In this document: one piece after another, positions 41,613 to 47,736 of the stretch
Position numbering within the stretch: position 1 is the stretch's first letter
Layout of the letters: every line of letters begins with the position of its first letter
Origin: Escherichia coli
Lineage (GTDB): Bacteria; Pseudomonadota; Gammaproteobacteria; Enterobacterales; Enterobacteriaceae
NCBI RefSeq assembly: GCF_002854065.1
Contig: NZ_CP024147.1
Direction: 5' to 3' (one strand)
DNA length: 64,000 nucleotides
Made by a program: the position numbers and the translations under genes
The notes under the pieces: model-generated
Database searches by the model: none
Told to the model about the DNA's origin: nothing
The model's input: only the letters and a program-made list of their open reading frames with translations

Positions 41613-43007
<1,395 letters not shown>

Positions 43008-43016
43008 TAAAGACAA

Positions 43017-43047
43017 GGCGCAACCTTCACGGGTTGCGCCTGTATTT
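43017..43047 (+). terminator. terminator after mdtK
   Basis: ggcgcaacc-ttcacg-ggttgcgcc hairpin followed by tgtattttta. Confidence 0.7.
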
Positions 43048-44304
43048 TTACGCAGGCTGGAGCGTTGCGCCAATCCCGTCTTCGTCTGGCTGTAGTTTCA
43101 GTGCATTACACAGAGTTTGCCGACTGGCATCTGTTATCTCAACGCGTATATCCCCGGTAACTTCCCCTTTCACATTGATGAAGTCAGGTGAAATTTCTTT
43201 CGCACTGGTTTGCAGGCAAATCGCTCCCTCTCCGCGCAGGCGTTTCACTTTCAGTTGCACATGCGTTGCCGCACCAGTGATCAGCCACAGTTTTCCGCCA
43301 TTCAGATTGATGTTACCAATACTGAAAGTGACACTGTCACCTTTTACCGTACTGCCGTCGAGAATCAATACACCGCCCTGCTGTACAGTAATCGTTGATT
43401 GTTGCAGATCTGCGCCATAGCCAATAATCATTGAAGCGCCGTCCAGTAATGCAACACTCCCGGTCAGTTCAACCGGTGCGCGATCTTCCTCTACGACAAA
43501 ATTTTCGTCCGCGCTGGTGGGTGACAACAGGATCACTGTTCCACCTTGTATTACCGCATTTTCCAGCGTACCGGCATGCACTTCAGCCCGACCACCCACA
43601 TTAACGGACAGGTTTTGCGTCTTACCGGAACTGTAGAGCTGAAGACCATCCGTCCCCAGACGATAGATGGCTCCATTCTCAACAATAGTGTCAGAGTCTT
43701 CACCACCGAGATTATTCATGGTGCCACCAGCAAGCAACGTATCATTGGCTTTCCCCGCCAGCATAAAAACGCCGCCCTGATTAATCTCACAATTGCTGGC
43801 TTCCCCACCTGGATACACCAACAATTCACCACCTTCATCTACCACGACCGCTGAGGTTGTCCCATTGACCAACAGGCCGCCCTCTTGATCGAGAATAATT
43901 TTTTCCGCGCGATGGCCTTCCAGTACACGCAGGTTGCCGCCATTTTCCAGCAACAAACCGCAGGCATAACCTTTATCAACGCTGAATTCACCTTCGGGAT
44001 GGCGGCCATTAACCGTAGCGAGCGTAGAGAGACTAATTGCGCCTCCCTCGGACTGAACAATATCTGTGGCAATGGCACCGTCGCTGACCGATAGCGTGCC
44101 ATTGTTATCGTACTGTGTGCATTTGGCGATCCCACCGGTTGCCACTTTCAACCAGCCAGCCCCCGTGACCACGGTATTTTCGGCTCTTCCGCCAGCTTCA
44201 ACAATCAACTCGCCTTCAGTAAGTTGCGTCGCGCCAATGACCTCGCCGGTCTTAACAATTTGCACATTCCCGTCGCTCATCAAGTTTTTCGCATCAGATC
44301 CCAT
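43048..44304 (-). CDS. ydhQ: autotransporter-passenger-like beta-helix repeat protein with no recognisable translocator domain
   Basis: 418-aa ORF, Gly/Thr/Asn-rich degenerate repeats typical of pertactin/AIDA-like beta-helix; no N-terminal signal peptide evident. Confidence 0.85.
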   Translation of the reverse strand: MGSDAKNLMSDGNVQIVKTGEVIGATQLTEGELIVEAGGRAENTVVTGAGWLKVATGGIAKCTQYDNNGTLSVSDGAIATDIVQSEGGAISLSTLATVNGRHPEGEFSVDKGYACGLLLENGGNLRVLEGHRAEKIILDQEGGLLVNGTTSAVVVDEGGELLVYPGGEASNCEINQGGVFMLAGKANDTLLAGGTMNNLGGEDSDTIVENGAIYRLGTDGLQLYSSGKTQNLSVNVGGRAEVHAGTLENAVIQGGTVILLSPTSADENFVVEEDRAPVELTGSVALLDGASMIIGYGADLQQSTITVQQGGVLILDGSTVKGDSVTFSIGNINLNGGKLWLITGAATHVQLKVKRLRGEGAICLQTSAKEISPDFINVKGEVTGDIRVEITDASRQTLCNALKLQPDEDGIGATLQPA

Positions 44305-44611
44305 GATTTATTCCTTTGCTGCATCTGTGTGCCTTTATTGCTACCTAAGTGTAAAGGCTACGGAGGATTTATCCACGACAGATTTGAGATGGTGGCAAAC
44401 AACTCTGTTTAAACTCTGATACACGAATTATTGGGTTGTATCAGATGTAAATGCGATCCTGAATAAAAATCGCCCTTGCAAATCAACAAAATATAGCCAA
44501 TTTGCTTAAAAGCTCTGCAAACGGTCGAAATAGCGCAGAAAATTACGTTTTGCCTCTTGCCACCTTCCCACTCTGCCGCTAATATTCGTCCCCGTTGTCA
44601 CCTACAACGTT

Positions 44612-44688
44612 GCGTTCATAGCTCAGTTGGTTAGAGCACCACCTTGACATGGTGGGGGTCGTTGGTTCGAGTCCAATTGAACGCACCA
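44612..44688 (+). tRNA. valV: tRNA-Val (anticodon GAC)
   Basis: gcgttcatagctcagttggttagagcacc...cttGACat...ggttcgagtcc...acgcacca; cloverleaf with encoded CCA. Confidence 0.95.
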
Positions 44689-44692
44689 TCCT

Positions 44693-44769
44693 GCGTCCGT
44701 AGCTCAGTTGGTTAGAGCACCACCTTGACATGGTGGGGGTCGGTGGTTCGAGTCCACTCGGACGCACCA
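44693..44769 (+). tRNA. valW: tRNA-Val (anticodon GAC), second copy
   Basis: Near-identical copy 4 nt downstream of valV; differs in acceptor/T-arm bases. Confidence 0.95.
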
Positions 44770-44876: not shown

Positions 44877-45182
44877 ATGGCAACTTTGTTACAACTTCAT
44901 TTTGCTTTTAATGGCCCATTTGGCGACGCAATGGCTGAGCAGCTTAAACCACTTGCTGAGTCGATTAATCAGGAACCTGGTTTTCTGTGGAAGGTATGGA
45001 CAGAAAGTGAAAAGAACCACGAAGCCGGCGGGATCTACCTTTTCACTGATGAAAAAAGCGCCCTTGCCTATCTGGAAAAACACACTGCCCGACTGAAAAA
45101 TCTCGGCGTTGAGGAAGTTGTCGCCAAAGTTTTCGATGTCAATGAGCCACTGAGTCAAATCAATCAGGCAAAACTCGCCTGA
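44877..45182 (+). CDS. ydhR: putative monooxygenase YdhR (dimeric alpha/beta barrel)
   Basis: 101-aa [27 protein letters not shown]...; recognised. Confidence 0.9.
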
Positions 45183-45196
45183 CAGAATTTAATCAA

Positions 45197-45218
45197 GGGC
45201 GGTTAGCGCCCTTTTCAT
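45197..45218 (+). terminator. small terminator hairpin after ydhR
   Basis: agggcg-gtta-gcgccct followed by tttc. Confidence 0.5.
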
Positions 45219-45307
45219 CCCTGTCTGAAATTTCTCAAATTCTAAAAATCTCAACCAAACTTATCTGATAACACTAAATTCGAAAGAATGCGTACAGGTA
45301 AGTAACA

Positions 45308-46912
45308 ATGAAAAAAATTGCTATTGTGGGTGCCGGGCCTACGGGGATCTACACCTTATTCTCGCTTCTACAGCAACAAACTCCACTTTCTATTTCTATC
45401 TTCGAGCAGGCTGGCGAGGCCGGTGTCGGGATGCCATACAGTGATGAGGAAAACTCAAAAATGATGCTGGCAAATATTGCCAGTATTGAAATACCACCGA
45501 TTTATTGTACGTATCTCGAATGGCTACAAAAGCAAGAAGCCAGCCATCTCCAGCGTTATGGCGTTAAAAAAGAAACCTTGCACGATCGTCATTTTTTACC
45601 GCGAATTCTGCTGGGCGAATATTTCCGCGATCAATTTTTACGATTAGTAGACCAGGCACGAAAGCAAAAATTTGCAGTGGCTGTTTATGAATCATGCCAG
45701 GTTACCGATCTGCAAATTACAAATGCTGGCGTCATGCTCGCTACAAATCAGGATTTACCCAGCGAGACGTTTGATTTAGCGGTGATTGCCACGGGTCACG
45801 TCTGGCCTGATGAAGAAGAAGCAACCCGAACGAATTTTCCCAGCCCGTGGTCAGGCCTGCTGGAAGCAAAGGTCGATGCGTGTAACGTGGGTATTATGGG
45901 AACATCCTTGAGCGGACTGGATGCGGCAATGGCAGTGGCTATTCAGCATGGTTCGTTCATTGAAGATGATAAACAACACGTCGTTTTTCACCGCGATAAC
46001 GCAAGTGAAAAGCTAAATATCACGTTGATGTCGCGCACGGGTATTTTACCCGAAGCCGATTTCTATTGCCCTATTCCCTACGAGCCCTTACACATCGTCA
46101 CCGATCAGGCATTAAATGCTGAGATTCAAAAAGGCGAATATGGCCTTTTGGATCGGGTATTTAGATTGATAGTAGAGGAAATCAAGTTTGCTGATCCAGA
46201 CTGGAGCCAACGCATAGCCTTAGAGAGCCTGAATGTCGATTCCTTTGCTCAAGCCTGGTTTGCCGAGCGCAAACAACGCGACCCATTTGACTGGGCAGAA
46301 AAAAATCTCCAAGAAGTCGAACACAATAAACGAGAAAAACATACTGTTCCCTGGCGTTATGTCATTCTGCGCCTGCATGAAGCAGTACAGGAAATTGTTC
46401 CACATCTGAATGAACACGACCATAAACGGTTCAGTAAAGGCCTTGCCCGGGTTTTCATAGATAATTATGCCGCAATCCCTTCAGAGTCTATTCGTCGGCT
46501 GCTGGCCTTACGTGAAGCGGGAATCATTCATATTCTCGCTCTCGGTGAAGACTACAAAATGGAAATTAACGAGTCGCGCACCGTCCTGAAAACGGAAGAC
46601 AACAGCTACTCGTTTGACGTTTTTATTGATGCCCGCGGGCAGCGTCCGCTTAAAGTGAAAGATATTCCTTTCCCTGGACTACGCGAACAATTACAGAAAA
46701 CAGGGGATGAAATCCCTGATGTTGGTGAAGATTATACGTTACAGCAACCCGAAGATATTCGTGGGCGCGTAGCGTTCGGCGCGTTGCCCTGGTTAATGCA
46801 CGACCAGCCTTTCGTTCAGGGACTTACGGCATGTGCAGAAATTGGTGAGGCGATGGCTCGGGCGGTCGTAAAACCTGCATCCCGTGCTCGTCGGCGTCTT
46901 TCGTTTGATTAA
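45308..46912 (+). CDS. ydhS: FAD/NAD(P)-binding protein YdhS
   Basis: 534-aa ORF with N-terminal Rossmann motif IAIVGAGPTG. Confidence 0.9.
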   Translation: MKKIAIVGAGPTGIYTLFSLLQQQTPLSISIFEQAGEAGVGMPYSDEENSKMMLANIASIEIPPIYCTYLEWLQKQEASHLQRYGVKKETLHDRHFLPRILLGEYFRDQFLRLVDQARKQKFAVAVYESCQVTDLQITNAGVMLATNQDLPSETFDLAVIATGHVWPDEEEATRTNFPSPWSGLLEAKVDACNVGIMGTSLSGLDAAMAVAIQHGSFIEDDKQHVVFHRDNASEKLNITLMSRTGILPEADFYCPIPYEPLHIVTDQALNAEIQKGEYGLLDRVFRLIVEEIKFADPDWSQRIALESLNVDSFAQAWFAERKQRDPFDWAEKNLQEVEHNKREKHTVPWRYVILRLHEAVQEIVPHLNEHDHKRFSKGLARVFIDNYAAIPSESIRRLLALREAGIIHILALGEDYKMEINESRTVLKTEDNSYSFDVFIDARGQRPLKVKDIPFPGLREQLQKTGDEIPDVGEDYTLQQPEDIRGRVAFGALPWLMHDQPFVQGLTACAEIGEAMARAVVKPASRARRRLSFD

Positions 46913-46923
46913 AGGTAAAGCTA

Positions 46924-47736
46924 TCAGCACTCAACAAACTGATGCTGTTCATTAAGACGATAGCGGACTCCGGCTCGAATATTGTTTTCACCTTCAATGG
47001 CGACGGCGAAACGAACTCTTTCGCCGTCATGATATGCCAGTGCGGCGCTTCCTCCTGGCCCGAGAATAATTGAGTCGACCACGCCCGTGCTCACTACCGT
47101 TGAATTTTCACCGCTGGCAATGATGTGTACATTGTCGCCGCTGTTGACAATTTTGGCGTTTGCGCCAAAGCTGGCGATTTGCACCAGGTCACCATTACTG
47201 GCGACATGACATCGTTCACCCAATGTACAAACGCGTACTCGCATTCCGGTATTCGCAATCCGACTGCTATCTCCAGCGCTGCTTATCCGCGAAGAATTGC
47301 CGGTTACAGCAACCCGTGCGCGCTCACCGGAGCTGCCAATGTGACTGTTAAAGCCGACACTTCCAATCCGCACGCTATAACCCATACTGGCAATTTGTAC
47401 AGCATACCCAGCGGTTGCGATTCTGGCGTTATCCTCACAACAGCCGATGCGAGCATGATCGTCGCTGCGGGCAAACTGACTGCAAAATGCTCTCTCTCCG
47501 GGATCTGTGGCCAGTTTTTGCATAGAGGAAACTTCCTGATGCGCGAAGTTTTCATCCGCCAGCCATTTTTTCCACGCATACTCAACAAGACTCTCCGCCC
47601 AGTCCGTATATCCTTCCTCAATCAGTGCATGATGAATATCAGCATAACTACCGCCGCGCGGGAAATGGCGCAGGAACCAGCGATACATCACCGCTCCGAT
47701 ACGCCATTCTCGCAGGTCTGCTCGTGTAATGATCAT
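46924..47736 (-). CDS. ydhT: YdhT (FhuF-like / unknown function), last gene of ydhYVWXUT
   Basis: 270-aa ORF; recognised by position and sequence. Confidence 0.85.
   Translation of the reverse strand: MIITRADLREWRIGAVMYRWFLRHFPRGGSYADIHHALIEEGYTDWAESLVEYAWKKWLADENFAHQEVSSMQKLATDPGERAFCSQFARSDDHARIGCCEDNARIATAGYAVQIASMGYSVRIGSVGFNSHIGSSGERARVAVTGNSSRISSAGDSSRIANTGMRVRVCTLGERCHVASNGDLVQIASFGANAKIVNSGDNVHIIASGENSTVVSTGVVDSIILGPGGSAALAYHDGERVRFAVAIEGENNIRAGVRYRLNEQHQFVEC

Follow-up and report, generated by a model that had tools for sequence, protein, structure and literature searches.

What becomes of an adhesin-like passenger domain that has neither a leader to take it out of the cytoplasm nor a barrel to take it through the outer membrane? 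The question is raised by ydhQ, a gene in the 64,000-nucleotide stretch of Escherichia coli DNA analysed here (contig NZ_CP024147.1 of assembly GCF_002854065.1; hereafter the window). Our results suggest that YdhQ is probably a domesticated cytoplasmic fragment of an autotransporter passenger rather than a surface adhesin. Its passenger fold and family can be assigned firmly, its cytoplasmic residence is supported by the literature, and it is probably stress-induced. The gene, its family model, the absence of a leader and the cytosolic behaviour of the protein are already known. We add that YdhQ fails as an autotransporter at the level of the barrel, that the truncated form is under purifying selection across the genus, that the insertion can be mapped against sister genera, and that a sigma-32-type promoter match lies upstream.

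The original prediction had placed a 418-aa ydhQ between mdtK and the valV–valW tRNA pair. The list of open reading frames (ORFs) and ARAGORN confirm this arrangement, with ydhQ on the minus strand. The product begins MGSDAKNLMSDGNVQI and matches the NCBIfam equivalog NF007409 (PRK09945) from end to end (residues 1–418 on profile positions 1–418; 939.3 bits, cut-off 830), and genome annotation of the locus in E. coli reads "ydhQ: AIDA repeat-containing protein". On the other side of a 40-bp gap, mdtK (41634..43007, plus strand) is convergent with ydhQ. The elements that define the gene are as follows.

43048..44304, minus strand: ydhQ coding sequence, encoding an AIDA-repeat beta-helix protein (ORF list; NF007409).
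44311..44316, minus strand: Shine-Dalgarno sequence AAGGAA, 7 nt 5′ of the ydhQ ATG and invariant in 8 lineages.
43016..43041, both strands: bidirectional intrinsic terminator common to the convergent mdtK and ydhQ, a hairpin of 10–11 pairs with T runs on each side.
44612..44688 and 44693..44769, plus strand: valV and valW, both tRNA-Val(GAC), predicted by ARAGORN and divergent from ydhQ.

Both ends of the gene are closed. Read directly from the DNA, an in-frame TAA at 44308–44310 lies 6 nt (two codons) before the ydhQ ATG, so a longer N-terminus is impossible. At the other end the terminator hairpin occupies the 40-bp gap and the ydhQ stop codon abuts it; because ydhQ ends at a terminator common to mdtK, there is no space for a downstream barrel gene. 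The terminator stem covaries between lineages (GCGCAACC/GGTTGCGC in E. coli, GCGCAATC/GATTGCGC in E. albertii or the most divergent Escherichia lineage), and in Salmonella and Enterobacter the mdtK terminator is a different hairpin from the Escherichia one. The allele in the window is not that of K-12: its DNA is 97.8% identical to K-12-like records and 99.9% to strain 100416, and its product is 97% identical to the main protein cluster.

Sequence, profile, structure-prediction and fold-search results agree that YdhQ has an autotransporter-type beta-helix passenger fold, as had been proposed. The protein is rich in glycine (15.1%), leucine (10.5%), valine (8.9%), alanine (8.4%), threonine (7.9%) and asparagine (5.7%) and has a net charge of −26. 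A period of about 18–19 aa runs through residues 1–200: z reaches 5.1 at shifts 19 and 36, and lesser peaks stand at 54–55 and 73–74. The same analysis gives no clear period for residues 201–418. Because the period is confined to residues 1–200, only the N-terminal half is repetitive. Four segments of the protein are distinguished.

43645..44271, minus strand: AIDA or strand-loop-strand rungs of about 19 aa in the N-terminal half, about aa 12–220 (Pfam, TIGR04415, periodicity).
43465..43524, minus strand: conserved acidic loop SPTSADENFVVEEDRAPVEL, aa 261–280, with 17 of 20 positions invariant in 8 orthologs.
43096..43317, minus strand: partial pertactin-like (autochaperone-type) junction, aa 330–403 (PF03212 positions 2–78 of 121).
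43051..43095, minus strand: conserved C-terminal tail KLQPDEDGIGATLQPA, aa 404–418 plus flank, modelled as two capping strands.

The Pfam AIDA family (PF16168) matches three stretches (E 3.9e-28), the strand-loop-strand repeat model TIGR04415 scores 45.1 bits against a cut-off of 30, and PF03212 scores 27.5 bits against a cut-off of 22. The NCBIfam models for Ag43 and AIDA-I match over internal passenger positions only, and the solved structures matched by the sequence are the Ag43 and TibA passengers, with aa 26–214 resembling residues 202–393 of the Ag43 chain. Pfam gave no match to PF18883 (AC_1), and none to the PF03797 beta-barrel at E ≤ 1. PHROG matches are to autotransporter-like families of unknown function, and PADLOC returned no match.

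An AlphaFold2 model built from eight orthologs is all-beta (pLDDT 84.7, pTM 0.78) and consists of a solenoid plus hairpins, with no long helix and no barrel; about 90 residues follow the beta-helix. Only residues 1–11 and 264–274 are modelled with low confidence, pLDDT falling below 50 at 264–274, within the acidic loop that is conserved among orthologs of 72–97% overall identity. The pertactin-like segment forms long paired strands (pLDDT about 90), and the tail adds strands at 402–406 and 411–417 (pLDDT 85–88). In the orthologs K403, L404, Q405, P406, D407, D409, I411, G412, A413 and L415 are invariant, and both termini are conserved (MGSD.KNL and KLQPD.D.IGA.L). Structure prediction had been proposed as a check, with an enzyme fold as the outcome that would overturn the assignment; none of the sequence, profile, structure-prediction and fold-search analyses found an enzyme-specific fold.

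The relatives of YdhQ point to its source. A word-indexed protein search returned Escherichia orthologs only, and we then used an exhaustive HMMER search of 1.84 billion representatives, which found no relative in the range between 71% and 37% identity. Of the other matches nearly all are autotransporter-like proteins of 1000–6000 aa, matched via the repeats; few proteins match the non-repetitive C-terminal half. In those of them that are complete (P0135 and P0095) this half continues through PF03212 positions 2–120 into a PF03797 barrel. The best collinear paralog found is E. coli YejO, 28% identical over aa 2–392. On this sequence evidence YdhQ appears rightly described as, by origin, a passenger fragment of an autotransporter of the AIDA-I/Ag43/TibA type (YejO-like). 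One match, P0090, seemed at first to be an ortholog of 55% identity sharing the YdhQ N-terminus; it was rejected because it is an artefact of the E. coli gene that arose at read level and is full of frameshifts. Two AIDA-repeat proteins from unrelated sources, P0173 (480 aa, beginning MMNVVWVEKGETKTG…) and P0158 (1155 aa), also seem to lack a signal peptide; if they are complete, leaderless passenger-like proteins may recur outside Escherichia.

YdhQ shows none of the export features that such an origin would lead one to look for. The best 10-residue hydropathy in its first 70 aa is 1.19, against 2.3–2.9 in the leaders of seven homologous autotransporters, and charged residues stand at positions 4, 6, 11, 18 and 21. 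No 19-residue window exceeds a hydropathy of 1.28, and no transmembrane-grade segment was found anywhere in the protein; inspection of the sequence found neither a twin-arginine motif nor an early (lipobox) cysteine. None of its 14 hexamers starting with GG fits the repeats-in-toxin (RTX) motif GGxGxD. Beside the gene there is no exporter, ABC transporter or membrane-fusion partner gene, the neighbours being mdtK and tRNA genes. The cysteine content, 0.7–1.4% where 105 long homologs have a median of 0.53%, points weakly to residence in a reducing compartment.

These results accord with the one published localisation test that we draw on, a 2026 surface-display toolkit that labels YdhQ a "leaderless autotransporter" (PMC13101318). 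There SignalP 6.0 predicts no signal peptide, and when no leader is added, reporter–YdhQ fusions fluoresce in the cytosol and give no agarase activity outside the cell. The original prediction had held that YdhQ lacks an evident signal peptide, that no translocator follows it, and that how or whether it is exported is uncertain. All three statements stand: hydropathy and the upstream in-frame stop agree with the negative SignalP result of that source, and neither PF03797 nor a modelled barrel was found before the stop codon at the terminator.

The truncated 418-aa form is old and under purifying selection across Escherichia. DNA of ydhQ is present in 5425 of 5426 complete E. coli genomes at 95–99.9% identity (in 5424 with at least 80% coverage). 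Orthologs of 418 aa occur in E. ruysiae, E. marmotae, E. whittamii, E. albertii and other Escherichia lineages, and the most divergent lineage (L001/L009) has one of 419 aa at 71% identity. Wherever flanks are available, synteny is the same in E. albertii, E. whittamii, other Escherichia lineages and the 71%-identity lineage, and the ORF is unbroken, with 418–419 codons, in every lineage recovered. Nei–Gojobori dN/dS is 0.05–0.11 in all 21 pairs among 7 lineages, including unsaturated pairs with dS of 0.18–0.25. Against E. albertii the value for ydhQ is 0.099, compared with 0.023 for mdtK, 0.017 for ribC, 0.060 for ydhR and 0.046 for ydhT, and its non-synonymous evolution is 2–5 times faster than that of its neighbours. 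Residues 94–136 form a near-invariant block in the orthologs. Given this genus-wide conservation and purifying selection, ydhQ is not a dead gene. The suggestion that it is a truncated remnant therefore survives as a statement of origin, in keeping with the collinearity with YejO and with the relatives that have a full pertactin domain and a barrel, and fails as a statement that the gene is dead.

Exceptions to the 418-aa form were seen in a few strains. The record NZ_CP032204.1 (H30) has a split ydhQ, with 53% coverage in two places, and the rare clusters P0003, P0007–P0009, P0012, P0013 and P0016 are length variants of 370–402 aa in few strains. Such split or length-variant copies are nearly all singletons, against 8778 members in the 418-aa cluster.

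The locus differs in sister genera. In Salmonella, Enterobacter and Pseudenterobacter valV–valW follows mdtK directly, with no ydhQ; in Salmonella and Enterobacter about 150 bp separate the mdtK stop from valV. Towards the tRNA genes the sister-genus loci are homologous to E. coli again only from about 100 bp before valV, and tblastn of the three mdtK–valV loci found no YdhQ-like remnant. The intervening DNA is the following segment.

43008..44510, strand not assigned: Escherichia-specific segment of about 1.5 kb that comprises ydhQ with its terminator and 5′ region and that sister genera lack; the right boundary is approximate.

A contig scan with two strict YdhQ peptide patterns recovered 5 loci, all from Escherichia; absence outside the genus rests on the three sister-genus loci, located via MdtK, and on the HMMER search, not on a full survey. 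Absent at this locus in the three sister genera and conserved in Escherichia, ydhQ is an ancient genus-level insertion, not a strain-variable island. Capture of a fragment as such and trimming of a full gene both fit the data.

Two elements upstream of ydhQ may bear on its expression.

44387..44413, minus strand: sigma-32-like promoter TTTAAA-N13-CACCATCT, matching 11 of 13 consensus positions.
44345..44375, minus strand: conserved upstream block TGGATAAATCC...AGCCTTTACACTTAG, a candidate sigma-70 −35/−10 pair (TGGATA-N16-TACACT) or an element of the 5′ untranslated region (5′UTR) with a GGA motif.

Against the sigma-32 (heat-shock) consensus TTGAAA-N13–15-CCCCATNT, the score of the first element was reached by 10 of 500 shuffles; the element is identical in a K-12-like record, and its −10 is kept in E. 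coli and close clades. We take ycjX, ycjF, yciS and yhdN to be genes of the sigma-32 regulon. A microarray table lists ydhQ beside these four (PMC2868799), and ydhQ is in the RpoH regulon set of PMC2710865. In the second element AGCCT.TACACTTAG is kept in 8 of 8 lineages, with one position varying in the most divergent, and the intergenic DNA around the block diverges between lineages. The block may be a sigma-70 promoter or a CsrA/5′UTR regulatory element, and CsrA sites have been predicted in the ydhQ 5′UTR (PMC5389547). The protein is made: YdhQ has been quantified in whole-cell proteomics (PMC6561319). It has also been co-purified with EF-Tu (PMC2672614) and is among the previously unannotated RNA-binding proteins of a further study (bioRxiv 10.1101/2023.07.03.547468).

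Taken together, these observations are best described, we think, by domestication inside the cell. In the Escherichia ancestor a piece of about 1.5 kb would have been inserted between the mdtK terminator and the valV promoter. It would have included the greater part of a passenger beta-helix together with the initial two thirds of a pertactin-like junction; the signal peptide, about 60 aa of early rungs, the linker and the 12-stranded barrel would not have been part of it. The product, presumably made in the cytoplasm from its own promoter region, including the sigma-32-type promoter, would be a very acidic right-handed beta-helix with an ordered C-terminal end. Lacking a Sec, Tat or lipoprotein signal as well as a membrane segment, a barrel and a partner gene, it would stay in the cytoplasm, and purifying selection would maintain it as a 418-aa protein. 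We infer that native YdhQ offers a stress-linked cytoplasmic binding or scaffold surface that acts by binding rather than by catalysis. Candidate contact sites, judged by sequence conservation, are the invariant block at aa 94–136 and the invariant, flexible acidic loop at aa 261–280. A bolder version, which we put forward tentatively and regard as possible rather than probable, is that YdhQ is the first documented passenger beta-helix re-used intracellularly: a heat-shock-regulated acidic solenoid whose segments 94–136 and 261–280 bind a cytoplasmic partner, perhaps in the translation or RNA–protein machinery, as the EF-Tu and RNA-interactome hints might indicate.

Several observations weigh against cytoplasmic domestication. 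EF-Tu is a frequent co-purification contaminant, and direct binding to RNA does not sit well with a net charge of −26. The sigma-32 match is in silico, is equalled by 2% of shuffles and is degraded in E. albertii and the most divergent lineage. In the selection analysis dS is saturated in the most divergent pairs, and Nei–Gojobori is a crude estimator. Site-level positive selection, commoner for surface proteins, has been reported in ydhQ (PMC9110714), a finding compatible with a low gene-wide dN/dS. The same paper states, second-hand from earlier work, that early adhesion requires YdhQ, and the protein is named in a list of extracellular-vesicle proteins drawn up at COG level (PMC10458587). 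The Keio ydhQ deletion has been employed as a neutral control (PMC6962156) and the deletion also as a chromosomal landing pad (GMT preprint). Finally, PMC13101318 determined localisation with fusions and not by fractionating the native protein, and a reporter on the YdhQ N-terminus would mask an unconventional export signal there.

The last point belongs to the alternative that survives best, which we nevertheless consider unlikely: that YdhQ is still an adhesin and leaves the cell by a non-Sec route: through the flagellar type III apparatus, in vesicles, by lysis or through an exporter yet to be identified. Such an exporter would read the disordered but conserved N-terminus or the conserved C-terminal tail, and Ag43-like beta-helix contacts would then attach the protein to cells or surfaces. 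The termini are indeed suggestive, residues 1–11 being disordered in the model and yet MGSD.KNL in all orthologs, with a conserved tail at the other end, and the vesicle listing of the COG group to which YdhQ belongs, the adhesion claim and the positively selected sites would all find a place. An in-vitro FlhDC peak, obtained by systematic evolution of ligands by exponential enrichment (SELEX), lies in the ydhQ–valV intergenic region (PMC9962212). However, this site falls on the valV promoter (TTGCCA at 44557), about 220–250 bp from the ydhQ start, and we therefore find FlhDC or flagellar regulation of ydhQ unconvincing. Nor is there an adjacent exporter gene or an RTX nonapeptide, and ydhQ is core in E. 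coli regardless of the accessory secretion systems of the strain. The RpoH regulon listing and the EF-Tu co-purification point inward, and the cysteine content exceeds that of secreted relatives.

Cytoplasmic domestication has also to be set against the possibility that YdhQ is a self-sufficient autotransporter anchor that lacks nothing but its leader and, given a signal peptide, carries itself and a cargo across the outer membrane. In PMC13101318, signal-peptide–reporter–YdhQ constructs give higher agarase and pFAST surface signals than constructs without the scaffold; the paper apparently does not take up the absence of a barrel. The domain content already contradicts this possibility: there is no PF03797 match, the modelled structure has no barrel, the pertactin domain stops at position 78 of 121 and no room is left for a barrel gene downstream. 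The reported display could instead reflect periplasmic leakage, envelope stress or the help of other machinery, and we regard a self-sufficient anchor as very improbable.

We give as little credence to the idea that ydhQ is a functionless relic, a pseudogene fragment not yet lost. Both parts needed for the ancestral job, the signal peptide and the barrel, are gone, the deletion has no reported phenotype and has its uses as control and landing pad, and the gene evolves faster at non-synonymous sites than its neighbours. Yet dN/dS stays low in every pair at synonymous divergence up to saturation, with ORFs intact; 5424 of 5426 complete genomes have kept the gene; the start context, the termini and the upstream block are conserved; and the protein has been detected.

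Least credible of all, and largely refuted, is that ydhQ is the cargo of a recent genomic island at a tRNA-Val integration site, an idea that draws on its absence from the Salmonella, Enterobacter and Pseudenterobacter locus and on the genes that lie 3′ of valW, SPI-2 in Salmonella and unrelated ones in Enterobacter, since ydhQ lies 5′ of valV rather than at the 3′ end where integrases act, has a GC content (0.50–0.525) like its surroundings, shows no integrase near it in the ORF list and no island boundaries (the only direct repeat around it being the tRNA pair itself), and is core in E. coli and syntenic across Escherichia, the 71%-identity lineage included.

The variable side of the locus is the one 3′ of valV–valW. 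In Salmonella (L011 8514..15362) the type III secretion genes of Salmonella pathogenicity island 2 (SPI-2) stand directly 3′ of valW, and in Enterobacter (L012 8528..11758) HSP20, GlgS and two genes related to type VI secretion (T6SS) follow the tRNAs. The original prediction had called the tRNA pair a common landing site for acquired DNA; SPI-2 bears this out for the 3′ side, and the claim does not extend to ydhQ, with its 5′ position, native GC, lack of repeats and core status. Other features of the same flank were noted. A ydhS-like NAD_binding_9 gene lies near valW in Enterobacter and Pseudenterobacter. The E. albertii locus (L002 4251..5432, compared with 44877..47736 of the window) has ydhT and then ydhR directly, without ydhS, which in the window encodes 534 aa at 45308..46912. 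The ydhT product (46924..47736, minus strand; 270 aa) has a C-terminal half of short units of about 9–10 aa (…IGSVGFNSHIGSSGERARVAVTGNSSRISSAGDSSRIANTG…), whose sequence suggests a small beta-solenoid; the Pfam match of the E. albertii copy spans YdhT_N only.

The general view is that autotransporter passengers fold only once exported. YdhQ would be a passenger-only protein that folds within the cell, persists there and is maintained by selection. Were its role found, it could exemplify a secreted adhesin scaffold recycled for an intracellular job and would supply a function for one of the remaining conserved y-genes of E. coli. Two practical consequences follow. Because YdhQ has no translocator, the 2026 "autotransporter anchor" display results need another mechanistic explanation; and the use of ydhQ deletions as neutral controls or landing pads presumes that the gene has no function, whereas the selection data argue for one.

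Comparison with known systems places YdhQ closest to the passengers from which it seems to derive. Type I secretion substrates combine RTX nonapeptides with an adjacent transporter, and YdhQ has neither; tRNA-associated islands are marked by 3′-end integration, an integrase, repeats, odd GC and variable presence, none of which applies to ydhQ. With classical (type Va) autotransporters it shares the beta-helical passenger domain and lacks the Sec signal peptide, the helical linker with its 12-stranded PF03797 barrel and a complete pertactin junction. It has the AIDA-type repeats of about 19 residues found in the passengers of self-associating autotransporters (SAATs: TibA, Ag43 and AIDA-I), without their signal peptide, extended signal peptide region or beta-domain, and of such a passenger it represents no more than the middle and the end. 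YejO, a small classical E. coli autotransporter of the AIDA type (P0095/P0115 cluster), is alike with YdhQ in three stretches: the repeats, a non-repetitive region marked by "NLG.D..Y.LG", and the beginning of the pertactin domain. YejO alone has a signal peptide, about 60 extra N-terminal residues, a full pertactin domain (positions 2–120) and the PF03797 barrel, whereas in YdhQ the last third of the PF03212 pertactin-like domain is replaced by the short, conserved, YdhQ-specific tail. The remaining comparison is with the K-12 YdhQ family itself (NF007409), of which the window protein is the same gene, structurally no different.

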